Shown one piece after another: positions 11,234 to 55,000 of a stretch of DNA of 64,000 nt. The DNA comes from Podarcis filfolensis (lineage: Eukaryota), in NCBI GenBank assembly GCA_964270895.1, contig OZ185435.1; one strand, given 5' to 3'. The notes under the pieces were generated by a model. That model did no database searches. It saw only the letters and a program-made list of their open reading frames with translations, and was not told the DNA's origin. Within the stretch, counting starts at the first letter, position 1. Each line of letters starts with the position of its first letter. A program made the translations under genes and the position numbers.

Positions 11234-11600
11234 GATGGCTCCTCGCCCGAGTTTTGCTTCGAGGCAACCTTCGTGCGTCTCCGTAGCCTACGGATGTGCC
11301 GCCGAAGCTCCCTTCGGCGGATGCCGGATGTCGTCGGTTATTTCCGTATCCGGCTTCGGACGCGGCTGGCGGCAGCCGAAGTCTTTCGGAAGGACTCGGG
11401 CTCAGCCTCGGCCGGCTATACTTATTGTAAACAAAGGGGCGGGCGGCGCTGCTGCGTTGCGCGGATCTGGGCTCTCAACTCCTGTCCCAAGTAGCGTCCT
11501 GAGCCCAGTCTGCGCCTGCGCGTTTTTCTTTGCGCGCCTGTTGCGTCTCCCTACTCTGCGGGGGAGCTCCTTGCCTTCGTACAGGAGCTACTGAGTCTGC
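10880..11600. promoter_or_regulatory. CpG-island promoter of AIP, possibly bidirectional
   Basis: CpG-dense stretch spanning AIP exon 1. It contains an NRF1 motif TGCGCATGCGC (11067-11077), ETS-like CGGATGT sites, a forkhead GTAAACAA (~11427) and a GC box GGGGCGGG (~11436). Confidence 0.75.
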
Positions 11601-17100: not shown

Positions 17101-18070
17101 CCCTCCAGATGCTTTTGCCTACAACTCCCATGATCCCTAGCTAGCAGGACCGGTGGTCAGGGATGATGGGAATTGTAGTCTCAAAACATCTGGAGGGCCA
17201 AGTTTGAGGAAGCCTGTATTAAATATTCAAGATTTAACTCTGTTGCAGCAAGTACAGGAACAAACAACATTAGTGGCATTTAATAAGTCTCATAACAATG
17301 CCACTCATCATTCCCTCTTAATTAATTTTGGAAAAATGTAGCCCAAGTAAGGAAGTCAGCATAAAAACTGGGTCCCTCACTAATAACGGTAGGGAATAAA
17401 TTTAATAAATAATAAACTAGCTAGGGCCTCCCATTCTCCATGACTAGAGATCAAACAAGCACCACCATGTGCTCGTAGATCTAGGAAACCCACAGAGGGC
17501 TCAGTTACACCTGTCATGTTAACCTTCAGGTGGTTGCAGGGCACCCCAGCTCCATCTGCAGACTTCAAGCTTGACACTTGGGTGCTGTAGCTGGCTGGTT
17601 CATCATGCCTTAAGTGTTACTTCTGAAGATAGGCCTTAACCTTTCTTTCATTCTTCAGGTCAGGATCAGAACTGAAACTCTCATCTCTCAACACCACTCA
17701 TGCTGCCCTGCTGAATGAGACCTGGAGTGTAGGTGGCAATGAGCAGAGTCTCTGCTATCTGACTCGGCTAATCGACTGCTTCCCTAGTAGTTGCCTTCTG
17801 GATGCTGGAGGATGTCCTATCTCTTGGGTCCTACTGGATCAATTTGGGTGCCTGACCCATGCTTACACCATGCCAGCACACCGTGGCAAAGGCTACATTC
17901 AGCTGGTGATAGCAGCACTAGGCAGGAAGCTACAAAGCCTCAATTACCCAGTCTATGGTGATGTCCTGGAAAACAACACATCAATGCAGAGAGCCCTACA
18001 ATGCCTTGAAGCCAACTTTACTAGTTGCTTTCTGTCCTATGACCTGCATACACCCATTTCTCTGCTGTGA
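14182..18070 (+). CDS. GLYATL3: Glycine N-acyltransferase-like protein (GLYATL3-like GNAT), 5 coding exons, 284 aa
   Basis: Exons: 14182-14259 (MLVLVNKDELRVLKKELRSCFPESLK), 14703-14810 (VHGAVLNVCQGNTFHQEILVDSWPSF...), 15754-15880 (KVPSERNYFTQSCAVFYKDLDAY...), 16235-16364 (GLQDGVYQTSQNL...), 17659-18070 (...LLNETWSVGGNEQSLCYL...DQFGCLTHAYTMPAHRGKGY...ISLL*). All introns are GT-AG, 855 nt in phase. Motifs SCFPESLK, DSWP, AVFYKD, GGNEQ and HRxKGY resemble GLYATL3 most. Strict orthology versus other GLYAT paralogues is not established. Confidence 0.88.
17082..17216. mobile_element. Palindromic hAT MITE (135 bp)
   Basis: Long TIRs caggcttcctcaaactcggccctccagatg / catctggagggccaagtttgaggaagcctg. 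8-bp TSD tactaaat/tattaaat (one mismatch). Confidence 0.85.
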
Positions 18071-18099
18071 CAGGCTATTCAAAAGCTCTGACAGTAAAA

Positions 18100-18105
18100 A
18101 ATAAA
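18100..18105 (+). terminator. Candidate polyadenylation signal AATAAA of the GLYATL3-like gene
   Basis: AATAAA 30 nt after TGA 18070. Confidence 0.5.
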
Positions 18106-27200: not shown

Positions 27201-30200
27201 ACAGACTTTCCAAGTGCATCCTATTGCCCACTACAGCACACTGGAAGGGCTCTTTCTAGGTGCTTCATCTCTCCAGTTCTAGGACTTCTGTGCCTGGATG
27301 TACACTCCCCTTTAAACAGCTTGCAGACATCCTGTCATATTGGGTGGGATTCACCTAACAAACTCATGTGTGCTCCCCCCCCATGGAAGCCAATGCAAGG
27401 ATTCCCACTCACATAACAGGACTTTCCCTCCCTCTCCTCCTGCCACATCCTCCTAAAATCTGCTCTGGAGGATTGGGAGAACTCCCAGGACAGTGCACAG
27501 TGGGAGGAGAGAATAAATTGCTCCTTCGGGCAAGCAGAACCCTCCTTAATGCTGGGTTAATTAAAACCCAATATTGCATGCTTAAAGTCAGTTCTCCTGG
27601 CCTCTGTTCACTGATATGGAACAAAACTGGCAGGCTGCAATGTGGGACACTTCTGCACCATTGCCAGGCACCAACCAAGGGCCCCATAGGCTCTAAAGCA
27701 GCCTTTCTCAACTTGTGGGTCCCCAGACGTTGTTGAACTACAACTCCTATCACGCCTAGCTGGGAAGGCCAGAGCTCAGGGATGATGGGAGTTGTAGTTC
27801 AACATCTGGGGACCCACAGCTTGAGAACCGCTGCTCTAAAGGGTTCCCCACTGCCTGACCTGTCTGTGCCACCCAGTCATTCACCTCACACACCCTGCTG
27901 CTCCCCCAGCATCTTTTAGCAGTGGGTAGGTGGCAGTGCCTCTTTTGAAGGGGAGCCAAGCTTGGCTCCTATTCCTGGAGGCTGCCCATGTTAATTTAAC
28001 CAAAACGCAATGCCTGATCAGTTCTGTCAGTGAACAAATTGTCACCGTTCAACCCTGGCACCTGTGCATGTGAAATCCTAATACATCCCAGCTTAGCCCA
28101 TGAATGAATCCATCTCTTACCTCCTTAACAACTTGCTCCAAGGAGGACGCAGATTCCTTGGGGCTGATCCCTGGGTCCTGGAGAGAAAAGTGAGCATCAG
28201 AAGTCATGGGGTGATGGCATTTCCAGAGCTGTCTGTAGAAGGTATCTTGCTGTGCTGTCTAATTCTGGATGGAAGATATTCTGGAGAACCCCAGAACTCC
28301 CAGAGAACGCACTACTCTACATACCATCTGATACAGGCAGCAGCCACCTCCCAATACCCATGAGCTCAGGGAAGGGAAATAGAGGAGAAATCACTTGGGT
28401 GGGAAAGGGAGAAGCAACTCATGCAAACAAATAAAAGCTAAGAACCTACTTACCTCAACTTGATCAGCTTCCTGGCAGTGCTAGAAGTAGGAAAACAGAG
28501 AAAAATGAGCCCATGGCTTATCTTCTCATTCTCAGCATTTTAAGCATACGTAATTGTCTTTGCATTCACTTTCCCATTCCCACGATTGGATTGCAAGAAA
28601 TGGTGTCTAATAAATTTAATTAATAAGAATATTCCATGCTTCTAGATTCAGGTAGGTAGCCGTGTTGGTCTGACGCTGTCAAAATATATAAAAAAATAAT
28701 AATAAATGTCCACCAACTAAGTTTGTTCCTGGTATAAGCATTTGTGTGCATGCACACTTCTTCAGATACAGTGTATCTCAAGAAGTGTGCATGCACATGA
28801 AAGCTTATACCAAGAACAAACTTAGTTGGTCTCTAAGGTGCTACTGGACAATTTTTTACTTTTTAAAAATATATTTCAATATTCCATGCTGTCTGCCTCA
28901 AAAATGTCCTCAAGATTGTTACTTGAATTATTCCCAATGAAAAGAAAGTACATATTACTTCTTGTACTCTTATTGCAAGCCAGCTGGGTTTTTGGGAAAA
29001 AGTAATACATACTATATTTTTCCATGTATAAGACTATATTTTCCCCCAAATTTTTAAAATTTAAAATTGGGGGTCGTCTTATACACAGAAAGTTTAAAAT
29101 ATTTATTTCTTAATTTTGGGCTGAAAAAATAGGGGTCCTCTTATACATGGGGGCATCTTATAGATGGAAAAATACGGTACTTCTGAAGGATTTTCATATA
29201 CCTATAAAAACCTGCATGTTACTCTGCAACTATTATCCCACAATATGTTCAGTGATTTCTCCAAGATGTATTCTAAGTCAACAACACTACTTATATATGA
29301 GTTATATAGGATTCTTCACAGATTAATTATTGAAAGCAATGTGCATTTGAGTCATCTGCCAATCTAGTTCTTCTGTGTAACTAAAAGCAGAGAAACAGCC
29401 TTAAAAAACTGAAACTGCTACTTACAGGTTGGCACAACCAAGTGGCCACAGTAGCAATCCAGGCAGTCCACAGAAAACAAGGCTAAACTAAATTTAGATC
29501 AAAATGGTGCATCCTATAAATAAACAGTTTTGATGCTCAGAGACCTGATTGTATGGTCAAAACCATGTGTCGTATCCAAAACAGTAGTTCTGTTAGTGCA
29601 ACAGAACTTCATCTCACTCTCCTCACCCGTGCACCCTCCCAAAATCTGCTTCAGAGGATTGGGGTAACCCCTGGAACACATTTAGAGGATGCATGGGGAG
29701 AGGAGATGGAAGGGAAGTTCTGCTGCACAGCCAGAAGCCCTTGCACTGATAAAATACTTTGCTGGAAACCACCCCATGAAACTGTCAAGTATCTTCCCAT
29801 TCACTCTCAGCATCAATCACAATAATTATTGGCAGCAACCAAAAAGTATAACTAGCAAATACCTTTATTTGGAACTGTTGTTGGCTTGGGCCATAAAATG
29901 CCAAGCTATGCTTTGGTGCTCTAAGAACAAATTTTGTCTGCCAAGGCTTTAAGCTAGTTTACAACCCCTGTGTGAATGCTGAGTGCATACCATACCCTGA
30001 TTATTTGAAGACAACTGGAAATTTGGCCTTACACTGAAGAGGATGCAATTTAATGAATGGGAGCACACAAGAGGAGGAGGGGAGCAGATAAAACTCATTC
30101 AAGTGATACATTCCATGTGGAAACAGCCCACTGTGTTTACTAAGGCTTAATCCTAGACAACTACAAACACCCTCCTCATATTTGCCATAGCAAGCATTCC

Positions 30201-33200
30201 TTCCAATCTCTGACAAGCCACAGAACGCAACTTGAGTCTAGGGAAGGTGGGAATAATACCTGAAGTTGCACACTGTTCTACAGGTGTTCCAAATAACGAC
30301 TTTCACTGCCTTAAAAGGGCAACTAACACCTTATTGGCAGGGCTTAGCAGGGCATGGCTGACTTTATCAGATTGTGAAATGTTTAGCATACTAATGTTGC
30401 TATAGAATAAAATTATATAGTACCTGTAAAACCTTACTGTGCACTATAGTGCCGATAGCTCCTGAGCAGAGTCTAGGAGTCAAACCTTTGAAGAGTCCAG
30501 CCCTTCCATCAATCTTCATAATGTGTTTAGCTGAAAACAGAAGTCAATACAGATTAAAGGATCATACTCAACATTGACTCTCACCCCATTCACACACCTG
30601 CCTAGAGGAGATTCCAGCACCCAAAAATGTGTTAAAAAAAGAAGAAGTTAGGGATGCAAAACTATTTAAAACTCGGCCTATCCCATGCTAGAGAAAACCG
30701 GGCCTGATGCCAAGTTAGAAACTTCAGTACAAAGGTCACGATACACAGCTGCAGGCATAATCTCCTGCACAGCAAAGCATGCACATGTCCTATTTATTTC
30801 AGCATGCTTAACTGAACATTGGACTACACTTAAAATAATGTCAGCATGCACCAGAACCCGGCTTGCCCTTCCCAAACTCTGCCATCCTCTACAGCAAGAA
30901 GGGAAAGTCACAGGTTTCCCAGATATTGCCAAATGGTTAGGAAGTTGAACAACATCAAGAGGGTCACAGCTCCCCCATCTCTGGGTTGCAGTAACAAGTT
31001 ACTTGTTAATGATCCTAAGTTTGAGTAACAGTGTGCAAGAAAGCAAGCAAGCTCAGAGCCAATAATATACAAGTTGGAGCATGAAGTGTGGCATTGCTGG
31101 GACATGCACATGCATGCACAGGCTAAATCATATGAAGGATACTTGAAGGGCAATAGGCTACAGGAAGAGAGAGGCTCAAATGCCCAAACATTGTACTTTC
31201 CTGTTATTCTAACTCTGTCTCACTGCATGAATTCAAAAGCCAATGATCATGGCTGTAGCACTGAAGCTTCTTGAGAGTTGAGACTCACCACTTTACCTAT
31301 ATAAACTGCCACTGTTCCAACAGTTGCAGGATCTCTAGCTAATCCTTGTACACATGAGAAGCTCTGCTTTAAAGGCATAGGCACCGCCAAGTGCAGTGCA
31401 GCACAGCAATTACAGCAATCCAATCCTGCTTTAAGTCTTTCTGGCTCATTCACAAATCTTATACATTATGCACTCACCATAAGCAAAGAGACCAGGCAGC
31501 TGATAGACCTGTCGCCCAAAGATATTTCTTCCCAGAGTTGGAGGGAGGGGTTCATATCCCACCTTCAAAATAAAGAGACAGCCTGCAGCAACCTCTATAG
31601 TGTGAACAGCATCCCAAGGAATAACCCCAACATTCCCTAGCAGTGAACAACTACAGCTGTTCCACTCACTGGACATTTGAAAACTGAACCATAAGAGAAA
31701 ATATGATCGATTTTTTGTTCTTAGAATTCTATGGCTGTGCTACTAACTGTAAGTTTAAAGTTCTAAAACCACTATATTCAGAAGATGGTAATAGTTCGTA
31801 GCTCACATTAAATGTCTGGGTGGTCTGCAGCTCAGCAGAAAGTCTGGCAGAGTCACTGGATACCAGGTGCCATCTCTTAGTGCTATACATATATATGTCT
31901 TACTAGTGATTGTCGTAAGATGTTCTGGGAATCTTTTTGGCTAAAGAACAGGAAATAAATACTTTAAATAAAATTTGGAGCTACAGACCAAACATATATC
32001 TCCACAGACACCACACTATATTCCCCCACTTCTTTGCTCCAAAGTGATTCCCCCTTGCATTTTTTCCAACCAGGTAAAGTTATTTTAAAATTGTTGTCCT
32101 TGATGTGATCTAGGTGACTCTGAAGATAAGTTTGCTGTGATTAAATGTTAAACAACTAGTTGAGAACATGGAGCTATTTTGTTTTTTATGCTGTGAATAG
32201 CCACTTGATTTGTCACAATATATCATACTAGGCAACATGTTTTCCATAGTTTATAACTCACATTATCAAGGTCTGCAATTTAGCAAAAAGTTTTACAGAC
32301 AAATTGGATACTGTGTTTCACAAGTCCAATTTACCAAAGAAGACAATGTGCTTTCTTGGCAGAGGTAGGCGGTATTTATTTTTGAGATAGATATCCCACT
32401 ACATAGCTCCACATATCCTCTGTGTAGTGAATCATATGAGAACCACTGTGAGGTTAATAACAGGAAGCCTCACAATTGTCTTTTGTCCTTAAATTCTGAA
32501 CCTTATATTATAGGAATTTGTGTATCCAAACTCAGAAATGCTAATGTGCTTCCCGTTCCTGCATTTTTTATTAGAAGGTGGATATGCAGGCTGTTAAATA
32601 TTTTAACAGACAGGGCTGTTGTACCTGGGGCAGCTATGCTTTTCAGCCAATGATGATACAAGTACAAAGCCACAGCTGGCCAAAAGCAACATGCAGCCAA
32701 ATATACTAAATAAAGAAGTTCTTGAGGCTGGAACTACTGGGAGTGTCCAAAACGCTACCAATAAAAATGAGAAGAGGACAAATTTGAATACGAGGCACAC
32801 ATAAAACCAGCGCAGAAAACTGATCCAGATTCAGAAATCAGCCAGGCTCACAAAAACATTTGAGTGAGGTACGCCAGTCTGAAACTGGCTAAAATTAAAC
32901 ATTGGCTTCTGCAATGAGGATTGTTCTGTGGCTAGCACTGGCAATTTTGTTCTCTCAGGAATGTGGACACAGCAAAGGCAGCAAGCGAGAGAAACGCAGT
33001 GTCTTGGATCTGATTTTGACCCTCTGGTGTTACCGGCACCGGTTGCAAATCCCACTGCTAGGACTCAATCTATATGGCTGCTACTGTGGAACTGGTGGTT
33101 CTGGAAGCCCCGTGGATGCAGTGGATCAGTGCTGTTTCATTCATGACTGCTGTTACCGCCACGCCAGGGTCTCCTTAAAGTGTCACCGCAGGGTAAAGTG

Positions 33201-34085
33201 GCAGCGGTACAAACTCTCGTGCAACGGATCAGAGACGGAATGCCAGTCCACGAGTATCTGTGGCAGGATGGCATGCGAGTGTGACAAGCAGCTGGCGGAG
33301 TGCTTGACAGCAGCCAAACCCCGCAGGAAGCATTCTTTCTACAACAGGGAGGCTCTCTGCAAAGGACCCAGGGACCCTTGCCCAGCCGTTCACCGCAACT
33401 GGACTGAAATTCTACCCTGGGGAAGTCTTTCCCCTCGACCAGTCTCGAGGTGGGGCTCGTAAGTAACCATTCAACTCTGGAAGAGAACAGGCTGCAGCTG
33501 CTGATTCCCAAAGGCTTCCCTCGCCGGACCCACCTCAGCACCTGCGGTACTAGGCAGCGCAATAAAGAAAGACTCAAAAGCGAAGTTGCACTGCAAATGA
33601 CGGCGCCTGCTGTCTGGATGGTGCGAAAGTGAGGAAGCGCTTCCCGCGTCCCTACGAGCGGCTTTCTTTTTCCTCCGCCGGGGCGGCGGCGCTGCTGCTA
33701 CGCCTCGGGGTAGGGAGGCGAGCAGCCGCCGCCCTGCGAAAAGGAAGTCTGAAGCAAAGCAAGGCCCGAATACGACCCAAGGCGAAGGGCGACTCCGCTA
33801 CTTCGAGGGGCTGCTGGCTACGCGGGGAGGGGGGGCGCTGCTATGGAAACGCGTTTGGGAGCGAGGAGGCAACTTCTTCCCCAGTGAGCGAGGGCGGGAG
33901 GCGACCTGGGGCTGCTTTGACCTCCTCCCACCCACTCAGTGCCGCCCCCTTCGTCGCCCTCACGAGCAAGGAAAACCTGCCAAGACTGAAGGCCTCACCT
34001 GCACGAGCACCTTCACGTACATGAGCGGCTGCGAGAGTACCGTGAGGCCGGAGCCCAGCAGCATCTGAGAGGCCGTGTCCGCCAT
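21288..34085 (-). CDS. MTCH2: Mitochondrial carrier homolog 2 (outer-membrane insertase, SLC25A50), complete 13-exon CDS, 301 aa
   Basis: Exons: 33999-34085 ([29 protein letters not shown]), 31478-31562 ([28 protein letters not shown]), 30424-30530, 28454-28480 (27 nt), 28121-28177, 26865-26922, 26077-26128, 25800-25859, 25332-25425, 24776-24823, 24190-24257, 21894-21969, 21288-21374 ([28 protein letters not shown]). All introns are GT-AG and in phase; the total is 906 nt. Exon sizes agree with the mammalian MTCH2 structure as recalled. Confidence 0.97.
22741..23093 (+). mobile_element. Full-length Sauria SINE with 15-bp TSD
   Basis: Runs from gtaaaggtacccctgacc through cagcttccgggtcatgtggccagcatgac to agcgccacctgtgtccc. 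TSD tgcacgtagccatag at 22726-22740 and 23094-23108. Confidence 0.9.
23424..23560. mobile_element. Palindromic hAT MITE, same family as 17082
   Basis: Near-identical internal sequence (ctacaactcccatgatccctagctagcaggacc). Perfect 8-bp TSD gtctaacc at 23416-23423 and 23561-23568. Confidence 0.88.
25001..25183. mobile_element. Tc1/mariner (Tigger-like) MITE
   Basis: TIRs cagtggtacctc / gaggttccactg flanked by TA. Confidence 0.75.
26450..26612 (+). mobile_element. L2 LINE ORF2 fragment
   Basis: Degenerate translation LDYCNAL...[29 protein letters not shown] is typical of the L2 RT C-terminal region. Confidence 0.75.
27699..27833. mobile_element. Palindromic hAT MITE
   Basis: TIRs cagcctttctcaac / ttgagaaccgctg. 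Perfect 8-bp TSD ctctaaag at 27691-27698 and 27834-27841. Confidence 0.85.
28650..28850. mobile_element. Penelope-like element termini in inverted arrangement, with degenerate minimal hammerhead motifs
   Basis: ~58-bp inverted repeat at 28713-28829 (ccaactaagtttgttc...cttcttcagataca / tgtatctcaagaag...aacaaacttagttgg). It is flanked by gtagccgtgttggtctg and tctctaaggtgctactgg, typical of reptile Penelope pseudo-LTRs. Confidence 0.65.
29012..29177. mobile_element. Older Tc1/mariner MITE related to 37629 and 51490
   Basis: Termini ctatatttttccatgtataagac / tcttatagatggaaaaatacgg flanked by TA. Confidence 0.6.
32800..32806 (+). promoter_or_regulatory. TATA-like element (CATAAAA) upstream of the nested sPLA2
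   Basis: Lies ~110 nt upstream of ATG 32914, implying a TSS near 32830. There is no strong splice acceptor just before the ATG. Motif only. Confidence 0.35.
32914..33462 (+). CDS. Intronless secreted phospholipase A2, group X-like (prepro-sPLA2, 182 aa), nested antisense in MTCH2 intron 1
   Basis: Single ORF from ATG 32914 (the ORF track starts at an upstream TTG, 32902) to TAA 33462. It has a hydrophobic signal peptide ([20 protein letters not shown]), a basic propeptide ending in a furin-type site (KGSKREKR), the Ca2+-loop [11 protein letters not shown], the active-site [11 protein letters not shown] (His48/Asp49/Tyr52) and CECD (Asp99). The mature chain has 16 Cys including Cys11 and a C-terminal Cys, the group X pattern. 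Confidence 0.92.
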
Positions 34086-34750
34086 GCTGCAGCCGCGCCG
34101 GGCTCCGCCGAGGGGGTGGGGGGGAGGTGGAAGCAGAGGCTACCGCGCCACCTCCACGTGACCTGCGGTAGAGGAAGATACGGCTCGAGCCGCTGCCTCC
34201 ACGTCCTTTCCCTCCCCTCCCACTCCAACTACTTCCGGTTCCAGCTAGTCCCTTGTTTCCGCCACTTCTAGAGCGCGATAGGCCTAGCCTTTGGTGTGGG
34301 GGGCAGGGAAGCAATATTGACAGTGACCTGCAGCCTGAACTTCCGGTAAAAACCAACCAACCCGAAAGCTATGATTCTCTATGGTCGCCGCTCTATAGCT
34401 TTGCAGCTCGGTGGTAAAAAGGGTCTAGAACTGAAGTGTCCGCGAGGATCAAGGTTGTACACAACTCTACATCCCCCCGTCCCATTGAATTTCTCTTGGC
34501 ATTTCTCGACGTGCTTCTTAGATCTGTTTCTGACAGCCAGTAAGGGAAAAAAATAGGCTTTTGCGTCACACGGTAGGTGGGCTAAGAATCTTCTGACCTA
34601 GAGGTAGGAAATTGTAGATTGTGTATCGGAGCCGAATGAGAGGCCGGGAAGAAGCTGTCGCGAGAAGAGTACGCTATCCGCGCACAGTTTTAGCTACATA
34701 AGTAAGTCACTGGCAGGCGCCGGATGTGTAGTAGAGGGCATTGAAGTCGG
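33500..34750. promoter_or_regulatory. CpG-island promoter of MTCH2
   Basis: CpG-rich region around MTCH2 exon 1. It has two ETS/GABP motifs ACTTCCGG (34231-34238, 34339-34346) and a near-match to TCTCGCGAGA (tgtcgcgaga, 34656-34665). Confidence 0.75.
33561..33566 (+). terminator. Polyadenylation signal AATAAA of the nested sPLA2
   Basis: AATAAA 99 nt after the sPLA2 stop codon. Confidence 0.65.
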
Positions 34751-36855
34751 GACAGTCAGCGAGTGTTTAATATAGTTAGTTTATTCGCCAGTACATCAGG
34801 TTTTCAGCAATCGTTAGGTTTTCTTCGCTCTGTGTACCATTAGATGCTTACTAGTTAAAATGTTCATGGCTAATGAAAACTCAGGGTTGTTGTTTTTCTT
34901 CTACTTCCATGCCTTCCTGGCAGAACTGTAGTACAATTGACATTGACTACAAAGGACTTCTTCAGTAAGCATTTGCAGGATCACTTTCCTAGTAGAAAGT
35001 CAAACTAACTAACAAAGCAAGCGCTGCCGCTGCCGCCGCTCTATTTAGTTTGCAATTCAAGTCTCATCTTACTTTGGACATCCTTGCTCTCAGGGAAGCT
35101 GCCTAGACCAAAATCAAGCATTCATTTTAAAGTGCTTTAATTATTACCCAGGAATTTTCCACATTCGGTTAATATGCAATACTACCAAAGCAAGTAATGC
35201 TTCTAGCATTTCAAAACTTCCAGCTTGTGTTAAGAGAAGAGCTTATGCGTTGTTGCTCAGCACCTAGACTCTTGTGCAGTCTCAAAATGTAATATCCTTT
35301 CAGCCCATCCCCACTGTAATTTTCCCTTCATCATCTCTCCCTTTCCCACTTTCCAGAGAAAACGAAGCCTTGTCTGTTTAATTTTTAAAATGTTGCTGGT
35401 GCACATGCCTGCCCTTTTACAAAAAAAACAAAACTGGTTCCCTCATTCTCAGAACAGCAGCAGCAATAGCAACAAGGAAAATGGAGTGGGCAGGTGAAGT
35501 ATTCCCAAAGTTTTGAAACCAACACATCCCTCCCATTATTTGGACACTGAAGGAAATTTCCAAGGCACTTACATATAGGGAAGAAAGACAGGAGGTGACA
35601 GTGAACAAGGTAAAATTATAGCTGTATATAAGGTGCATTTTAGTTCAAATATGCTTTCCTGCCAGAATAACTGATTAAAAAATATATGAAATTGTACTTT
35701 TCCTAGATTTTTTGTGTATTTTGGGACAAAAATAGGTAGTCAAAGAGTTACTTGACAGAAACAAATTGTAGCAGATGCTAAACTAGTAGATCCTAGTTTA
35801 ATACTAAAGAGAGGAAGAGGAAAATGCATGTAGATTTGCCAGTCTGTTTCTCATTTGCAGTTCAGACACATTTAATGTGAGATTTCTTCGTTCCTTCCTG
35901 GATTATAATCCAAAATCTTCATAGTGAGAATAAATTATAGCTTAATGGTAACACAACTGACTTGTTTATAACAGGTCATCAAAGTTTGCACCCGAGTGGA
36001 TGGATTCTTCACAGAAATAGTTTTTAGCTACATTATGCAAAATGAAATATCATTCAATAGATTTCTACATAAATATGTTCTGTTTGGGTGTGTTTTAGAA
36101 CACTAACAATTATTTTATGACAACTGAAAACTTAAAAAAATAGAATTGCACCTTCAGTACCTTTACTATGCCGTTTAATGTTCAACAATACATACTTTTC
36201 ACTCACAAAGAGTAACAGTACCACTTTAGAGGTAAAAACGCAACAAAACTTGTACCTGAGTATTGCATTTTTTCCTTGTGTGGTTCCAACATTACAGCAA
36301 CAGAATTGTTTCTGTTATTATTGTGCCCACTGCTACACAATCATCTATTATTAATTCAACGTAATAGTTTTCAGATATTCACCCTTCATCATTAAAATAA
36401 TAATTCATGTACACATTTGATAGGAAACTTTTTGGGGGGTTTACAAAAAGAAAAAAATGGTGGAATGACATGCAACCTCAGTAAATGTGAATTTGGGAAG
36501 TAATGGTGGAGGGTTGGGGAATGTGTGTCTGATGGTAGAAGTGGAATTTATAGAGAATTAGCATGAGGGAAATGCTGTTTAACCCCTCACACTCACTGAG
36601 TCATCCTATGCCCACTGGATCTTTCCCCTCTTCTGATTTTCAACCCTGACTTGGTGGGGAATAATTAAAAATAGCCATGTGAGGCATCTGCAGAAGCTGC
36701 GGGCAAGGAGGTTCAGCACCTCCTACCTGCCAGTACTTCCTTGCAAGTACTTCCTACATTTTCACTTTATGAATAAAATATAGGAGTGGAAATTATGTGT
36801 TCTTCCTGAAATGCATTGTACTAACCAAAGGTCTTAACGGGGGAAAGCTTTGCCC

Positions 36856-37042: not shown

Positions 37043-40000
37043 TTAAAAGTCTATGGCTTCATAGGAGGGCACAAGATGTTCCTTGTGCACAAACTTTGCC
37101 TTTGGATTACCCTCTCTGTTCTTCAGTAATGAATATTTTTGTCCAATCATGTTTGGAGTTCCCCTGACTTTGGCATGATGTTCATTTTCCGACTTCAGAA
37201 CCATGTAGTCAATTTTGAGTGGTTTCCATTTGTATTCTCGGTAGGGAATAATCTGTGACCTGCTTTGGTTCAGATTCCACAGGTTTTTGTTGTCAATAAT
37301 GCTATGAGATTTCAAAGAAAGACTTCGACGCAGCATTAAAGTCACAGAAGGCACTTCAGGATTCCACCACATGGACCTAAAAAAAGGGTTGGGGGAGAAA
37401 AATAGTTCTTTTAAATAATTAAATTTCAAATACTGTATTGTAGATAAAAAGTGGTATACAAGCACTTGTAATTAATTAATAAATTGAGAGTGAAAGAAAT
37501 TCATTTCACAAAGACATAGTAGGGACCAAGACTTAACCACAACCTAAAGGTATTAGCATTTAATGCAGTTCAAAGCAGGAAAATGTCAGTTATCAGGGTT
37601 AGACTCTTAACTTGAGCAATTGTATTTACCGTATTTTTCGCCCTATAGGACGCACTTTTTCCCCTCCAAAAATGAAGGGGAAATGTGTGTGCGTCCTATG
37701 GGGCGAATTCAAGCTTTCGCTGAAGCCTGGAGAGTGAGAGGGGAGAGCCCCAGCGCCAGCCCCACAAGGTCGGGGAACAGAGGGAGGCGGAACGCCGCCA
37801 TCCCGCTGTCTCCCGAAGTGGTTTGGAGGCTGACGGCGGGGAGACCCCGCCGCAAGCCCCGCAAGCTCCGGGGACAGTGAGGAGGCGCAGCGCGTCTCCC
37901 CGCTGTCCCCGGACCTGATCTGAAGGCGGGCAGCGGGGAGAAGAGCGCTTCTCCCCGCTGCCTGCCCCGCAAGCTCCGGGGACAGCTGGGAGGCGCAGCG
38001 CGTCTTCCCGCTGTCCCCGGACCTGGTCTGAAGGCGGGCGGCGGGGAGAAGAGCGTGTCTCCCCGCTGCCTGCCCCACAAGCTCCGGGGACAGCTGGGAG
38101 GCACAGCGCGTCTCCCCGCTGTCCCCTGACCTGATCTGAAGGCGGGCGGTGGGGAGAAGAGCACTTCTCCCCGCTGCCTGCCCCGCAAGATCCGGGGACA
38201 GTGGGGAGGCGCAGCGCGTCTTCCCGCTGTCCCCGGACCTGGTCTGAAGGCGGGCTGCAGGGAGAAGAGCGCTTCTCCCCGCTGACGGAACCACAAACGC
38301 CTGGGGGGGGAAATAAAATTTTTTCCCTTTATTTCCCCCCCAAAAAACTTGATGCGTCCTATGGGCCGGTACGTCCTATGGGGCGAAAAATACGGTAACA
38401 TGTCTGGTTGTTTGTTAAATAACAGTTGCAAGGACCCCTGAATAGAAACAGGACCACAGTATACAGGGAGGGGAGGGGAGGAGCTTCTCCCTAACAACAG
38501 AAGCAGTTTCCAGGAGCAAATTTCATTTAGACTGCAACACAGTAGAAAATGGGCCCTACCATGGTCCTAATCCCAACAAGTTTCCAGCGGCCATTTAACT
38601 AAAATTCTTAGACATATGCAATAAAGCATAATAAAGCATGTAGTTTGGCCTTGATTTCTGATTTTCATTCATGTTCTAAAAGGTGAGAGAATACAATACA
38701 GTGGTGGTTGTTTTACCAAGCCGGATTAGCAATCGCTGGAATGCTGACAAAGATTACCGGTACTTTTGTGTGTCTCAACCAAGTAGCCTTTTATTAGTTG
38801 AATTATCATATAGCTCAAAGATAAATGAAGGGCAACTAGCCAAGGCTACTTTCCAAGTTTCACCTTGCATGAAATAGAAACTACATCACACCACACATTA
38901 GCCACCCAGCCTCAATTCACCTAGTTTAACCTGATTATAATACACACACACCAGGCAACAGTCAGTGAGTACAGAACATGCCCTTTACACAGCCTCAGCA
39001 TGTAAAGAGCATTCACATCACACTACACACATAACTGTAAACCTTACACCATAAGCGTCTTGTGGCCTCTTAAACACTAAACAATTCCTTATGGGAACAA
39101 TGCATACACATGGTTTTCTTGGGGTGGGAGAGGGGTTGTATACATGATGAGGGTGGCTGTAAATGAGGTCCAAAAACACAGATGAAATACTTATTTGCAG
39201 TATACTGTATTCCACAAAAGCTTATGCCACAATAAATGTATTTGCCTTTAAGGTGCCACAAGACACTTGTTGTTTTTGATGCAAAAGACTAATCCACCTT
39301 GCTTCCTGGAAGTACATGTAATGTTTTCCTGCACATGTATCATCATGTAAGTAAATTGTAAGTGAAAAGGCCTAAAGTTAGACAATTAAATCAATGCCAT
39401 TTCAGAAGGCTGTCATGGTGCCCAGGAGGAGTTCTGACCCGGTAGTACCTGTGTCGTTTGACTCCAAGACCACGAGGACATTCGGATGAAACACAAGTGC
39501 CTGTAAAGAAGTAAAAGGAAACACAAATGCCAAATCAAAACGAAACAGCAGTAGTGCATTTCTGGCTGGACTAAAGTCAGCAATGATGTGAATTTTCCTT
39601 AATGTCTTGTTTCACTTAATACAATGGTTTAGATTTGGTGTCTGACATACATTCCAGTTAAAGAGAACAAGTACCCATCTTGTCCAGATTCACATCTAAA
39701 TTTGTCTTCTTCATCTGGCAGAATTTTCTTATTAGGATCATTCACTCCTAAGTGCTCATTCTGTCCCTTAACCTCACAGGTAAATTTGTCTGCTTAACTA
39801 CCCCAGTCCTGTACCTGCATTCTGTTTCTCATGAAGTTCTTCATCAGGCTGTAAATGGAAGGAAAATGGGTGCTGTTTGATGGGTGACTTTGTGAGGCTC
39901 CGTCGCTGTTCTATTGATGGAATCATAGCTACGAGGAGCGGCTGGGGACCCTTGATCTTGATCTCAGGTTCAATTATTGGGATGTTCTGCTTACCCAAAG

Positions 40001-49000: not shown

Positions 49001-52000
49001 CAATCCACCTCCTGAAATAAAGGGCTCAGCGTGGCTAATAGGTGGGCTGCCTTAGAAGTCACGAACAAATTATAACAAAACAGTGATTGTTTCTGCAGAA
49101 TACTGAGGCCCTGCCCAATACATTTTGCTACCTGAGGCAGAGCAGTAAATGGTGCCTCTGCCACATTCAGGGTGCTCTCACACACCTCTCATTCATAAAC
49201 AGAGAGAGATTAGCCATCACTCCTACACACTGCTTAATTTCCAACATAATCTATTGTCCTGCCCCCATATTCTCTCACAAACACTAGAAGGTTAACAAAA
49301 AAAGATAAAAGGACCCCTGGACGGTTAAGTCCAGTCAAAGGCAACTATGGGGTTGCGGCGCTCATCTCGCTTTCAAGTCGAGGGAGCTGGCATTTGTCCA
49401 CAGACAGCTTTCCAGGTCATGTGGCCAGCATGACTAAACTGCTTCTGGCGCAATGGAACATCATGATGGAAACCAGAGTGCACGGAAACATCGTTTTCCT
49501 TTCTGCCACAGCGGTACTTATTTATCTACTTGCACTGGCATGCTTTCAAACTGCTAGGTTGGCAGGAGCTGGAACTGAGCAACAGGAGCTCACCCTGTGA
49601 TGAGAATTCAAACAGCTGACCTCCTAATCAGCAAGCCCAAGAGGCTCAGTGGTACCCCTCTACAGCTGGGTTATGCATGCCCCATTGTTGACAGATACAA
49701 TGTGAAAGACATAGAGCATGGCATATTCATTGTCATACCCACACTCACTGACTTATGTTTATCACTGCCAAAGTTCTTCATGGTATTGTTTGACAACAGC
49801 AGCTCTCTCACTCTTGCTCTCTATTATTCCTCATACACTAAATTTTCCAGAGGGGGAGTCTTGTGGCACCTTCAAGACTGCATCTGATGAAGCTGACTAT
49901 GATCTATGAAAGCTCTACTCTGGTGCACAACAAGATTGAAGCTGGTCTGTAGGAACTGGCTGAGTGTGTGATTATATATAGTCTGCTATTGGGATAGCAC
50001 AGCTATGAAACATCATTGTCTGGATTCTGGCACACACTCGTCCTCTCTCTTTCCCTTCTTCCCTTTCACGTCAGAAGTTTTCTTATTTGGACAATGTTGC
50101 AAGGTCAATGGCTTCAAGAAGGAGTACAGGTAGGAAAGAAGAAGAGGTGTAAGGAATAAGAAAGAAGCGTTCTCTCTCAGTCTCCTTCTGCCACTAGGTC
50201 AGACTGGAGTAGGTAGGTGTATAGGCATGGGAACACACACTTCCCTCCACTGCTGCTATGGACTTGCACAAAACACAGCAATAAACCTGCTCATTCACTC
50301 TCCCTTCTGCTGCTCAGTTGAACTAGCACGCTCTACCTGGAGGAGTGAATTGCAGGAAAACCAAAGGCACAGAAAGAGGCAGGATGCTGCCAGCACCTCC
50401 ACTTTTTTCTCACTGGCACTCACTCCCAGCCAGCAGAAAGTGGGAAAGGAGTGTGGAGACTTAATGTTCAAAGCAGGAAGCAAGCTGGCTGTAGAGCCAA
50501 AAAGTGACAGAGTGAGGTAGCTGGCTGAACAGCCAGATTTGGGGGCATGTAGGACCTCAAAAATCTTCCACTCTAAAAAGTGCACCTCCCAAACCACTAC
50601 ATGTCTTGCCCAGGCTAGTTAGTGCAGTCATGTCAATGATGAAGGACTGAGGAAGATGAGAAGCTTCTGCTTGTCTTTCTAACAATGAAGCTCTACTAAG
50701 TTATGTCAGTAGACAGTATCAGACAGCCAACCCAACAAGCACTGGCAACCCCTGTTGCCACCTGGCAGCCCAAGAAAGCCAGACCTTTCCATGAGACAAT
50801 GAGTGACCCACCTAGATTTCTCAACAAATAGCAGCACTGACCAGGCTTGCTGCAGGACAGTAGTGTGGTAAGTGACCAGTCAGTCAGTAGAGGCCTGGCT
50901 ATGGCCAGTAACAGAGGAGTAGGAGGAGTGGCACCAAACTTAAAAGACGTATGGAGGCAGCGCACCATCAATTTACTGTGTAGGACAATAAACAAAAAAT
51001 GAGGATGATGTGAGGTAAGAGTAATCACTTGTGGGGATGGGGTGGGACTGTGAGGGGGGAGAAAAGGGACTGATCTGTCACCCATGGCCTGAGGCTTCAG
51101 GCAAGTGTCTCATTCAGCCCCATAAAAGTGTCAGTCATGAGAATAACCTAGACCACTTCAACAATACAGGAATTAAAAAAAAAGAAAAGCAACACTCACT
51201 AGACAGAAAACTAGTGAAATATCCAAACAGTTGAACTGCATTCCATTGGGAAACATTTCTAGCTGGCTGTCCTCCTCCAGCAAAGGCACTTATCTGGTCT
51301 GTTTTAATTTGCCTCTTACCAGGATATCTTTCTTATGTTTTGGTGTTTGACTCAGAGTAAGTTTCTGATGCAACTCATTCCTTTCCTTCCTTGTTCTGAG
51401 TTGTTTCTTTTTCTTCTTTTTCTTCTTCTCATTAAAATCCTTCAGAGAATAAAAACATAACAACACAATTGTGAAAGTGTTCCCAATTACCGTATTTTTC
51501 GCCCTATAGGACGCACTTTTTCCCCTCCAAAAATGAAGGGGAAATGTGTGTGCGTCCTATGGGGCGAATGCAGGCTTTCGCTGAAGCCTGGAGAGCGAGA
51601 GGGGTCGGTGCGCACCGACCCCTCTCGCTCTCCAGGCTTCGCGGACCTCTCTACAAGCAGCGGGAGCGCTCCCGCTGCTTGCGGAGAGTTGGCTGCATGC
51701 TGAAGCCTGCGCGCGCTGAGCTCAGTGTGTCGAGGCTTCGCGGACCTCTCCGCAAGCAGCGGGAGCGCTCCCGCTGCTTGCGGAGAGTTGTCTGCATGCC
51801 GAAGCCTGCGCGCGCTGAGATCAGCGCGTCCAGGCTTCGCGGACCTCTCCGCAAGCAGCGGGAGCCAGCACTGGGCTCCCACGGCTTGCAGAGAGCTGCC
51901 TGTTTGGGGGCTGGGGTCGGGGGAAGCTCGGGCCTCCCCCGCCCCAGCCCCGCGCCTGGGGGGGAAATAATTTTCCCCCCTTTATTTCCCCCCAAAAAAA

Positions 52001-55000
52001 CTAGGTGCGCCTTATGGGACGGTGCATCCTATAGGGCGAAAAATACGGTACCACCTAAATGCAGTCAAAGAATGGTTTTGTTTGTATGCTAAACTAAACT
52101 AAACAAGCATAAAGATTCCGAGAGGAGATTTCAGCAACTTTGCTTCTCCCTAGTCATTCTGCTGATCTGCAATCCTGAGCTAAGCCATGGCTTGGCATAA
52201 CATTTTGCCAAATCCAGGCTTGTGGTTTAGTTCTCCTCCAGTGAAAATAAGGGCATCCCATTCCATAATGATAATTTTACTATTTATACCTCACACATCT
52301 TACTGGGTTGCCCCAGCCTTTCTGGGCTGCTTCCAACATATATAAAAACATAGTAAACATTAAACATTAAACAACCTTCCCTATACAGGATTGCCTTCAG
52401 ACGGCTGGGGGATCAGATAACTCCATACCCTCCAACATTTCTCCACGGAAAATAGGGACATCCTAAGGAAAAGTGGGACATTCTGGGATCAAATCAGAAC
52501 CCAGGATGGTTTCTCTAAATCAGGGACGTCCCTGGAAAATAGGGACACTTGGCGAGTCTGCTAATCACAAGCTGCAACTGATTGTCTTATGGCTTGTCTG
52601 AGAGAGCTAAGGCATGAGCCTGGGTTCAGACAGCATGCTAAACCAAACCGTAGCTTTGCACAGCAGCAGAATGACCAGGGAGCAGCAAAGTAGCCAGGGT
52701 TTCCCCTCAAACAGCTTGTACACCTGCATGTTCATGCTAAACTATGGTATGGTTTAGTGTGACATGCAAACCAGGCCTTAAAGTCCATATCTATTTCCTT
52801 CAGCGACCAAAGTATTCCTAGATTCCAAATAAATAATAATTTAGAAATTATTGAGATTGCTCTGTGGCATTTAGGCTGTAATCTTGTGCACATTTACATT
52901 TGAGTAAGTTCTGTTGAACACAGTTGTATTTACTTCTGAGTCAACAAGCATAGGAAATACAGCTTATCTCCCAGTGTTTGTTGTATTTTTCTGCTCAGTT
53001 CTTAAGTCCCACCCACAGTATAATTCTTGTTCTTTTTCACAGCATAGTCCTAATAAGTTACCTATCCAGGCTCCAATAGCAACCAGTAGCATAGTTTTCT
53101 TAGGACTTGTACAAATTGTCATCTTCCGAAAGACAGAAGTGCCTGCTTTACTTATTTGTTGCAGGCAGTCCAGTTATCTTCATTCAAAATATAAATTTTG
53201 TGGCTGCATTTTCCCAGCACTAAAACCATACTACATTATTGGCAGGAAAATGCAATTCTCCTTCCAGTTCATGCATGTTTTACTCTAGCAACTGCTATGT
53301 GGAAACAGGTCTCAAAGGCATCTCACAGAAAACAACTGACAAAATCAACTCAACTATGGGGTGTGTGTAGATTTTTAAAATATTTAGAGACTGAGCACTC
53401 CTTGCTATATCACTGAAGAACTAGGATATTAATTGTGTCCTTTAAACAGAAAAAGGCAAATGGAAAGCACCTCCTTCTCTTGCAGAAATGCCTAGCCTTT
53501 TAAGGCATGTTTAAAAGAACTTGCTGAAATGTGTTTTCCAGAAACAGCCAGTGTGACTATACAATGTAGAATTTCAATTGCTAGTATCAAAACAAGCTTA
53601 GTATTGAAAAAAAACATCTTTGCATAGATTACAATACCACTAGCATACTTTTCATTGACAATAAATTAGTACAAAAAGCATGAGGAAAATAAACTATAGA
53701 AAACAGATACAGCAACAAAATAAAAAAGCCTCATCAATCAATTTTTTCCATTTTCCATTAAATCCTTTGAAATATGTGCATTTTTTCTTTCCAGTAACAG
53801 AATGCACATCTCCTGTAATGGTCTCTTTCTGAGCCACTAACATCAATACCAACCCAATCTGTAGTAAGGTTAGTGTCCCCATTCCATTACAAGGGACCAG
53901 GATATTGAAGTTTTTATATTTTTCCAGGTAGATTTGTTCACCAAAAAATGAATAACTCTCACCTTCTCATCCATGTTGAGCAAATGTGCAGGGGGGCCAT
54001 CTGACTGGGAACTGTCTGAGCCACTTGTGCTAATTAAAGGAAAAGGAAACCATTGGTGTGATGCAGGGCAACATAAGAACACAGTAGCGTAGCGTGGGTT
54101 GTCAGCACCCGGGGCAAGGCAAGTAATTTGCGCCCCCTAACCCGTGGATTTGCGCCCCCTAACCCGTAGATTTGCCCTAACCCCAGATGTTGCGCCCGGT
54201 GCGGCCGGCCCCCCCTGCACCCCCCACGCTACGCCACTGTAAGAACATAAGAAGGACCCCCAGGATTAGGCCAATGGCTCATCTAGTCCAATATCTTGTT
54301 TTCACAGTGGCTGAACAGTGGCTGGAAAACATGCAAGCAGGTCTCAAGCACAAGAGCACTTTTTCCTCCTGTGGTTTCCAGCAACTGCTATTCTGCCTCC
54401 TGTGCAATATATGTGAAATAGAGATGATCCAGTTGACATTGTGTACTTAGAATTTGAAAAAGCTTTTCATAAAATCCTAGACCAATGTTTCCTGGGTAAA
54501 CTTAGCAGGCATGGAATAAGAGGAGAGATCCTCTTATGAGTCAGTAATTAGTTAAGAAACAGGAAGCAGAGAGTAGGAATCAATTATCAGTACTGGAACA
54601 GATGGTAAGCTAACTGGCCTGTAATATCCCAAATCATCTCTGATCCTTTAAAAAAAAACTGGTATTACATCTGATCCTTGGGTATGGGGACTGATCTTAG
54701 GGACAAATTACATATTTTTTAAGAAGATTAGCAATTTCACATTTAAGTTCTTTAAGAACTTTTTAGTAGATGCCATTTGGACTGGGTGATATGTCAGGTT
54801 TTAATTTGTCAATAAAGCCTGGAACATCACCTGCTGTCAGCACTATTTCCTTGTCATTTCTCTAAGGTTCGAGTCAGTAAAAGCTTGCAGACTTGAGTTA
54901 CCTGGATTCAACATCTGATAGAGAGATGTCACTCCAAGTACCATCTATGTTTTGTACATGGCCCAGCTCTGAGAGCTTTCTCTGGATTTTTTGCTTCAGT

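Follow-up and report, generated by a model that had tools for sequence, protein, structure and literature searches.

An intact, intronless gene nested antisense in MTCH2 intron 1 of Podarcis filfolensis, predicted to encode a secreted phospholipase A2 and probably of ancient origin

In a 64,000-nucleotide stretch of DNA from the lizard Podarcis filfolensis (the window), we identified an intact, intronless gene nested in MTCH2. We regard it as probable that this gene encodes a secreted, Ca-dependent phospholipase A2 (sPLA2), belongs to a branch of its own that extends from sharks to squamates, and arose by ancient retroposition. Proteins related to it, in animals as distant as sharks, turtles and snakes, group on a separate branch, so the gene likely represents an old, overlooked sPLA2 line rather than a reptile novelty.

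The open reading frame (P0001; 32914..33462, plus strand) encodes 182 residues plus a stop in a single exon, as an earlier note on this DNA had described, and contains no internal stop or frameshift. Its product matches the Pfam profile PF00068 (E 2.3e-27) continuously over profile positions 16-108, and its DNA is single-copy in a whole-genome search. A chance ORF was considered as a reading of this stretch and rejected. Approximately residues 1-20 (32914..32973) are a predicted signal peptide, with a Kyte-Doolittle window peak of 3.08 at the hydrophobic N-terminus, and a hydrophobic start is also found in relatives. Furin-type convertases have the consensus R-X-X-R, and residues 24-28 read KREKR, of which REKR (32986..32997) closes the propeptide; of the 84 alignment rows with a leader, 81 have R-X-X-R immediately ahead of the mature domain, and the three exceptions are all Anolis. 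All 16 Cys of the mature PLA2 domain (32998..33381) fall in columns shared with group X, and the earlier count of 16 holds for the mature part but not for the whole ORF, which has 17. The domain includes the calcium-binding loop YGCYCGTGG (residues 54-62; 33073..33099), the active-site residues His48, Asp49 and Tyr52 (33142..33156), and Asp99 of the catalytic dyad (33283..33285), four residues that are given in pancreatic numbering and correspond to ORF residues His77, Asp78, Tyr81 and Asp124. These elements, together with KREKR and the predicted signal peptide, had been named in the earlier note and are confirmed. A 26-residue tail past the last Cys (33382..33459) carries an N-glycosylation sequon at Asn162, and a tail sequon is present in 58 of 94 rows.

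The available text of PMC10135803 characterizes sPLA2s of groups I, II, V and X by a catalytic dyad of His and Asp, a loop that binds Ca, 6-8 disulfides and low mass, and the lizard protein has His77 and Asp124, the YGCYCGTGG loop, the 16 Cys, a mature part with a computed mass of 17.5 kDa, and the PF00068 domain. From its sequence, the mature protein is basic, with a pI of about 9. An AlphaFold2 model had moderate confidence (mean pLDDT 64.7), and a Foldseek search with it gave sPLA2s as all 50 of the 50 matches listed (best E 9.8e-7); in the ESM Atlas, the matches were to generic PLA2 clusters only.

The nesting in MTCH2 is seen in both translation and transcripts. Coding exon 1 of the host gene (33999..34085, minus strand), which lies in a CpG-rich stretch, was recognized by its translation and a splice joint, and exon 2 (31478..31562, minus strand) by its translation, the splice joint and a protein search in which the frame containing it retrieved proteins named MTCH2. 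In all four sequencing runs, a read joint with CT..AC ends skips 2,436 nt, indicating that MTCH2 intron 1 (31563..33998) is spliced out. The PLA2 ORF lies wholly inside this intron on the opposite strand, so the antisense nesting proposed earlier stands. Misassignment of the MTCH2 exons was rejected; both exons translate in the way the earlier note had given. An Rfam search over 28000-36000 had 0 matches. On the plus strand, a candidate polyadenylation signal, AATAAA, is present at 33561-33566, 99 nt past the ORF stop, and CCAAT (32758) and CATAAAA (32800) are speculative promoter elements (32758..32806), named by motif only, without a chance control.

The coding region lacks introns that are regular features of other sPLA2 genes. 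Codon 43 in pancreatic numbering (33127..33129, plus strand) is their phase-2 intron site; it is present in all 11 of the other sPLA2 domain exon ends examined in this genome, each with GT after two bases, whereas the nested gene is uninterrupted there, with its next motif in frame. Likewise, a phase-1 intron after Cys84, found in six of the eight other sPLA2 exon ends tested, is missing. Both losses are exact and leave the frame intact, the mark expected of a retrogene, and the intronless state put forward in the earlier note is upheld. No A-run of 7 or more was detected across MTCH2 intron 1, and no flanking direct repeat pair resembling a target-site duplication was found around the PLA2 ORF, in agreement with the earlier note, which saw neither mark; given the age proposed for the insertion, neither would be expected to survive. 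An intron-bearing twin or parent of the nested clade was not found in this genome. Judging from the sequence, the nested gene was likely born by ancient retroposition.

The protein resembles several known sPLA2 groups without falling into any of them. Group X is defined by eight disulfides, including 11-77 and 50-133, and all 16 Cys columns are shared with the nested PLA2 in 12/12 group X rows, so that the group X pattern recognized earlier is borne out, with the pairing inferred from columns. A propeptide with a basic end is also common to both; in the alignment with 6g5j, a group X structure and the first unengineered PDB match of the family profile (E 2.3e-26), the nested REKR stands where the propeptide of that protein closes. 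However, the nested PLA2 has longer loops than group X, by 3 residues (Cys11-27), 1 residue (Cys51-61) and 2 residues (Cys61-77), and differs from it in the 26-residue tail, the absence of coding introns and the location in MTCH2. It also falls outside the group X (PLA2G10) clade. The possibility that it is the ordinary PLA2G10 orthologue, which the earlier note wished to see checked, was rejected, as group X-type genes with introns occur separately at two other sites of the genome, on C14 and on C4. Group IB is defined by seven disulfides, without 50-133, and by a pancreatic loop. The nested PLA2 shares with group IB (PLA2G1B) the Cys11-Cys77 pair and similar PDB search scores, but it has the Cys50-Cys133 pair, which occurs in 0/6 IB rows, and its Cys61-77 spacing is 13, compared with 16 in IB, and therefore it has no full pancreatic loop; group IB is represented by two separate genes on C16 of this genome. 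Group II/V, whose members lack Cys11-77 and belong to an OTUD3-linked cluster (bioRxiv 583344), shares the Cys50-Cys133 pair, a C-terminal extension, Lys at position 69 and a basic charge. By contrast, Cys11-Cys77 of the nested PLA2 is found in 0/13 group II rows, the nested PLA2 also has a propeptide, and it lies on C1 and not in the group II/V cluster on C8, in keeping with the earlier placement outside the usual clusters. Otoconin-90 and otoconin-22-like proteins have the same fold, and domain 2 of OC90 has 16 Cys, but the nested PLA2 differs from them by its one domain, its full catalytic set and its separate clade, with 25-36% identity.

Protein database searches identified members of this lineage in 68 named species from seven vertebrate groups, with sharks, rays, sturgeons, coelacanth, amphibians, turtles, lizards and snakes all represented; the reptile lineage of the earlier note was thus drawn too narrowly. 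The databases searched name no member among birds, crocodilians, mammals or teleosts. In nine of ten comparable reptiles, the PLA2 record shares its contig (by length) with MTCH2, at accession gaps of 1-74, which shows adjacency and not nesting and supports the reading of an ancient retrogene; the mismatch, Terrapene, has a MTCH2-like fragment of 89 aa on a 17.9-kb scaffold. In a tree of the kind the earlier note had called for, with groups IB, II, X and OC90, the 21 sampled members form a clade (95/93; 99/93 when the ray paralogue is included) separate from group X (96/93), IB (98/90) and OC90 (97/96), in an alignment of 125 columns with 22 of the 75 inner branches open. The order within the clade roughly follows species relationships, and this lizard's gene has a short terminal branch (0.055). 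As to the sister of the clade, AU tests rejected none of group X, IB or II (p-AU 0.61, 0.34 and 0.44, respectively), and three short constrained searches on the parent spread over only 2 log-likelihood units.

Across this range, the catalytic machinery is conserved. In an alignment of 96 rows, which are redundant and not independent species, His48, Asp49, Tyr52, Tyr73, Asp99, the Ca-loop glycines Gly30 and Gly32, and 12 of the 16 Cys are kept in every row, and Lys occurs at position 69 in 94. The lizard protein is 55-57% identical to shark and skate rows, compared with 32-43% to group X. As far as aligned proteins can tell, the gene is under long-term constraint, and the earlier suggestion that it stayed under selection holds in that form.

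RefSeq and UniRef already predict the gene in other species, as the earlier note had anticipated, with inconsistent labels and no record uniting the proteins as a group. The labels include "phospholipase A2, minor isoenzyme-like," "crotoxin basic subunit CBd-like," "otoconin-90-like" and "Group 10 secretory phospholipase A2"; the venom-like ones (crotoxin-like, taipoxin-like) are source labels and are misleading. A MTCH2-nested phospholipase A2 gene was not found described in our literature search. Among more distant sources, a metagenome scan for relatives produced a single match, 19 residues long and located where a contig ends, and a viral scan gave 0 matches among 45 candidate stretches.

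In the furthest-reaching account, which we find credible if slightly short of probable, these proteins are an unnamed vertebrate sPLA2 group as old as IB and X, descended from an antisense MTCH2-intron-1 retrogene that predates the jawed-vertebrate split; the gene would be intronless there in sharks, sturgeons, coelacanth, amphibians and reptiles, its sister paralogue would survive in rays and a sawshark, and independent losses would have removed it from teleosts, birds and mammals. It is unlikely, by our assessment, that the lineage is old and the intronless nested state younger, the gene having been retrocopied into MTCH2, or having lost its introns in place, toward amniotes, while the parent copy vanished. 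That course would suit the fact that adjacency to MTCH2 was checkable in turtles and squamates only. It would also suit frog records that carry isoform X1/X2 labels, and therefore have introns somewhere in those genes, but the two isoform records differ by N-terminal extensions and not inside the domain, the members form one clade roughly tracking species, and no second, parent-like copy was found in squamates or turtles. A retrocopy confined to reptiles, made from PLA2G10 or PLA2G1B and perhaps linked to venom origins, would account for the group X Cys pattern, the basic propeptide and the venom-like database names. We consider it extremely improbable and rejected a reptile-only origin, since the lineage also occurs in amphibians, coelacanth, sturgeons and cartilaginous fishes, unless those fish and amphibian proteins should turn out to be another gene. 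A reptile group X copy was rejected by the AU test: forcing the seven squamate-clade rows to join the group X gene of this genome lowers the log-likelihood by 105 units (p-AU 0.0016). According to the part of PMC10321490 available to us, snake venom PLA2s were recruited from groups IB and II, and the nested clade lies outside both; no result links the gene to venom, and the venom relevance raised in the earlier note is not sustained.

Two further readings concern the gene product. That this lizard no longer expresses the gene, or lost its function a short time ago, with the ORF as a leftover, seems very improbable, even though no plus-strand reads over the PLA2 ORF were seen in four runs (of unspecified tissues, with filtering that removes some records), a result that also counts against the preferred reading. 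An index of 24 runs listed none with RNA of the gene, which speaks neither for nor against transcription. Depth over the ORF was 0 in three of the four; X1 was indexed as sharing 0.51 of the words but had no record placed on the ORF, so that its zero is not readable as silence; in the raw-read runs X23 and X21, the MTCH2 exons were well covered and the ORF had 0 reads, but these are only two samples, tissue unspecified, at 12% and 6% of each run. In X5, from a related organism, one contig covers the ORF at a depth of 8.7 and continues into MTCH2 exon 1, and may thus be pre-mRNA or DNA; all three differences listed within the ORF are synonymous, which, with the intact frame and the short terminal branch, argues against decay. 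It is somewhat less improbable, yet still very unlikely, that the protein is mainly non-catalytic, serving as a ligand for a receptor or, in the manner of otoconin-90 or otoconin-22, as a structural component of a matrix. The second domain of OC90 has all 16 Cys columns (in 4 of 8 OC90 rows), and the long tail of the nested PLA2 is likely glycosylated, but no row of the alignment departs from the full catalytic set or the Ca-loop glycines, and the clade stands apart from OC90 and the otoconin-22-like gene.

Under the preferred reading, that of an ancient retrogene for a secreted enzyme, a group X-like ancestor with 16 Cys and a propeptide would have supplied a spliced mRNA that was recopied into the genome before the shark/bony-fish split, and the copy would have been kept under constraint; teleosts, birds and mammals would have lost it, or it has been overlooked there. 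The signal peptide would route the protein into the secretory pathway, where a furin-type convertase would cut after REKR and free the N-terminal helix. The basic, eight-disulfide enzyme would then bind Ca2+ via its YGCYCG loop, and His48/Asp99 would cleave extracellular phospholipids at the sn-2 ester. As to its role, our tentative best guess is that the enzyme takes part in defence or in lipid signalling, at a surface of epithelial or reproductive tissue.

The surprise is limited because the chemistry expected is ordinary sPLA2 chemistry. The vertebrate sPLA2 list of 11 or 12 members is, in the portions of PMC10135803 and PMC13620184 available to us, drawn from mammals, and a conserved group that is seemingly missing from mammals changes the reconstruction of the ancestral set. 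The enzyme would have a basic surface and a tail together with the disulfides of group X, and if the nesting is true in fishes, the gene would be unusually old for a nested retrogene. In addition, names such as crotoxin-like and taipoxin-like can mislead when toxins are counted in the genomes of reptiles, frogs and sharks.

On the plus strand, positions 32914-33462 hold a stop-free ORF of 182 codons whose product matches Pfam PF00068 (E 2.3e-27). The product has a hydrophobic N-terminus, KREKR at residues 24-28, a YGCYCGTGG loop, and His77, Asp78, Tyr81 and Asp124, which correspond to His48, Asp49, Tyr52 and Asp99 in pancreatic numbering. The single-exon ORF with a basic propeptide, Ca-loop and catalytic residues described in the earlier note is thereby confirmed; the 16 Cys ascribed to it hold for the mature part (154 aa, 17.5 kDa, pI 9.0) and not for the whole ORF, in which 17 were counted. 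The predicted structure is moderate (pLDDT 64.7), and all 50 of the Foldseek matches listed for it are sPLA2s. The ORF-bearing stretch occurs once in the genome, an AATAAA sits 99 nt 3' of the stop, and a fragment from Podarcis muralis is the nearest sequence with a species name.

MTCH2 exons 1-3 translate from the minus strand of the window, and the frame containing exon 2 recovers proteins named MTCH2. The joint between exons 1 and 2, which skips 2,436 nt with CT..AC ends, is present in reads or contigs of all four sequencing runs, and therefore the ORF sits, antisense as had been proposed, within a real MTCH2 intron 1. In other species, adjacency was judged indirectly, from a same-size contig and the gap in accession number between MTCH2 and the relative of the ORF. 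The records match in nine of ten comparable species, all turtles or squamates: Mauremys reevesii (gap 2-4), Mauremys mutica (1), Gopherus evgoodei (13), Gopherus flavomarginatus (72-74), Thamnophis elegans (22), Crotalus tigris (2; 1.70-Mb scaffold), Rhineura floridana (5-8), Ophiophagus hannah (3; 0.66-Mb scaffold) and Paroedura picta (6). Terrapene, the tenth, gave no match; its MTCH2-like record is a fragment of 89 aa, and the scaffold is 17.9 kb long. The comparison shows that the sPLA2 gene adjoins MTCH2 across turtles and squamates, which is distinct from nesting.

A genome-wide PF00068 search gave 32 matches (40 candidates scored), and the window locus is the only one where an unbroken match spans profile positions 16-108; most of the other matches begin or end near positions 41 and 80. 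Among 12 fetched stretches, GT follows two bases of codon 43 in all 11 Ca-loop exons, whereas the window's gene reads straight on in frame from codon 43 into the following motif. A phase-1 intron after Cys84 was found by script in six of eight paralogues checked, and it detected none in either group IB gene. Neither a poly(A) run nor a target-site duplication is left at the window's gene, as the earlier note had observed. Retroposition is the simplest account of two exact intron losses and an antisense intronic site, and its date would hang on fish gene structures.

By sequence and tree, the same genome also carries two group IB genes (C16, 23.09 and 25.48 Mb), a group II cluster and an otoconin-22-like gene (C8), OC90 (C7), and two group X-type genes (C14, 43.58 Mb, and C4, 72.42 Mb); these group labels derive in part from source names and in part from known group motifs. 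The ordinary PLA2G10 is therefore elsewhere in the genome, and the window's gene was rejected as that gene. In a tree of 78 of 295 domains picked for spread (IQ-TREE, LG+G4, 125 columns), the 21 sampled members of the ORF's own group form a single branch (95/93), and a wider branch (99/93) adds three paralogue rows from rays and a sawshark. Group X (96/93), IB (98/90) and OC90 (97/96) stand apart, and the base of the tree is unresolved. Grouping seven squamate-clade rows with the C14 group X gene cost 105 log-likelihood units (p-AU 0.0016), so the suggested group X retrocopy is rejected for that gene. The best-scoring tree placed the clade as sister to group X (p-AU 0.61; log-likelihood 6.4 units higher than in the free search), and sister positions to IB (p-AU 0.34) or II (p-AU 0.44) were likewise unrejected, the short constrained searches differing by 2 units; the parent may belong to group X, IB or II. 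Group X and the members have all 16 Cys in common columns, but three loops are longer in the members, and identity is 49-83% inside the clade versus 32-43% to group X.

A second 16-Cys paralogue of rays, skates and a sawshark (P0240-P0242, P0261, P0408-P0412) branches as sister to all members of the clade (99/93); in Leucoraja, Hypanus and Mobula its contig differs in length from that of the main gene, and its top match in the Podarcis genome is the window's ORF. Second, faster-evolving copies occur in paddlefish (P0259/P0404, both on one 1.7-Mb scaffold) and ranid frogs (P0257/P0397). The member P0008, sister to the turtle row (100/97), is possibly crocodilian, and the member P0022, of biased composition, was placed among squamates.

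A search with the ORF protein gave 34 matches among 69 candidates, and a profile search 57 among 1,347. An exhaustive profile search (E up to 1e-30) gave 13 representatives: ten members, one ray-type paralogue, and two multi-domain group II and IB proteins with scores summed across domains. Cluster look-ups for 30 proteins placed members in at least 68 named species among the cluster members listed, including at least 8 lizards, 9 snakes, 16 turtles, 21 amphibians, the coelacanth, 5 sturgeons and paddlefish, and 8 sharks, rays and skates; the proposed reptile lineage is thus not borne out. No bird, crocodilian, mammal or teleost is named among the members listed, yet birds supply 87 of the 120 MTCH2 rows among matches listed. 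Such absences could arise where annotation overlooks a single-exon gene nested in another, and two divergent members recovered by the exhaustive search had escaped the word-based one; loss in these four groups is therefore inferred.

Across 96 member rows (redundant, with partial Chelydra and Varanus models excluded), His48, Asp49, Tyr52, Tyr73, Asp99, Gly30, Gly32 and 12 Cys are invariant, and the remaining four Cys are present in 93-95. Of the 84 rows that include a leader, 81 have R-X-X-R ahead of the mature start; the sole exceptions, which lack the basic propeptide motif, are from Anolis (P0006, P0226, P0228). Run X5 comes from a related organism, and all three of its ORF differences among the best-supported ones listed are synonymous. 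Each of the four elapids seen has a model of 135 aa that begins from an internal Met and lacks a signal peptide, and a further model from cobra carries an unrelated leader (P0043, P0229, P0231, P0232 and P0041 in all); leaders are intact in five colubroid and viper records. The elapid pattern may reflect an annotation artefact or a loss of secretion in elapids.

Runs X1, X23 and X21 had zero depth across the ORF, and the stranded-looking X23 gave no plus-strand signal there, in each case after record-dropping filters upstream. One X5 contig runs unbroken from 32802 through the ORF into MTCH2 exon 1, at a depth of 8.7, where the remaining intronic pieces reach 2.6-4.6 and MTCH2 mRNA reaches 331; it is strand-blind and may represent pre-mRNA or DNA. 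Four RefSeq accessions for one Rhineura protein, and isoform labels on records from two frogs, suggest transcript-backed models with variable 5' ends.

Elsewhere in the window, reads from both strands pile up very deeply at 28660-28860 and 29010-29185 (MTCH2 intron 3), with numerous loose ends, which likely marks a short repeat of high copy number, and the GC-rich 37630-38400 and 51475-52090, with tandem units and similar long frames, are likely copies of one repeat element. Exon-like frames at 6030-8200, 11100-11500, 17600-18100 and 58536-59360 are presumably AIP, TMEM134, a glycine N-acyltransferase-like gene and AGBL2.

The protein is already predicted in databases, with labels that include "minor isoenzyme-like", "crotoxin basic subunit-like", "otoconin-90-like" and "Group 10". 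A search of the non-subscription literature found no description of the gene among the papers listed, and MTCH2 does not occur in the main texts of PMC9680080, PMC10321490, bioRxiv 583344 and PMC10797961 or in two supplement files.

From what is known of the family, the signal peptide would route the protein to secretion. Group X sPLA2 is processed by furin-type enzymes, and a furin-type convertase would here remove the propeptide at REKR, after which the His48/Asp99 dyad would carry out Ca-dependent sn-2 hydrolysis on extracellular membranes. The domain has a net charge of +8 (median +7.5 across member rows), and of the 96 rows, 72 conserve Trp10 and 86 conserve Trp70. These features would be favourable on anionic as well as choline-containing membranes; our best guess, at low confidence, is therefore a role at a body surface, in defence or in lipid signalling. 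Overall, the gene is real and conserved and is predicted to work like a group X sPLA2, while lying outside group X by orthology and gene structure; it is a separate, old sPLA2 branch, unusual in being intronless and nested.
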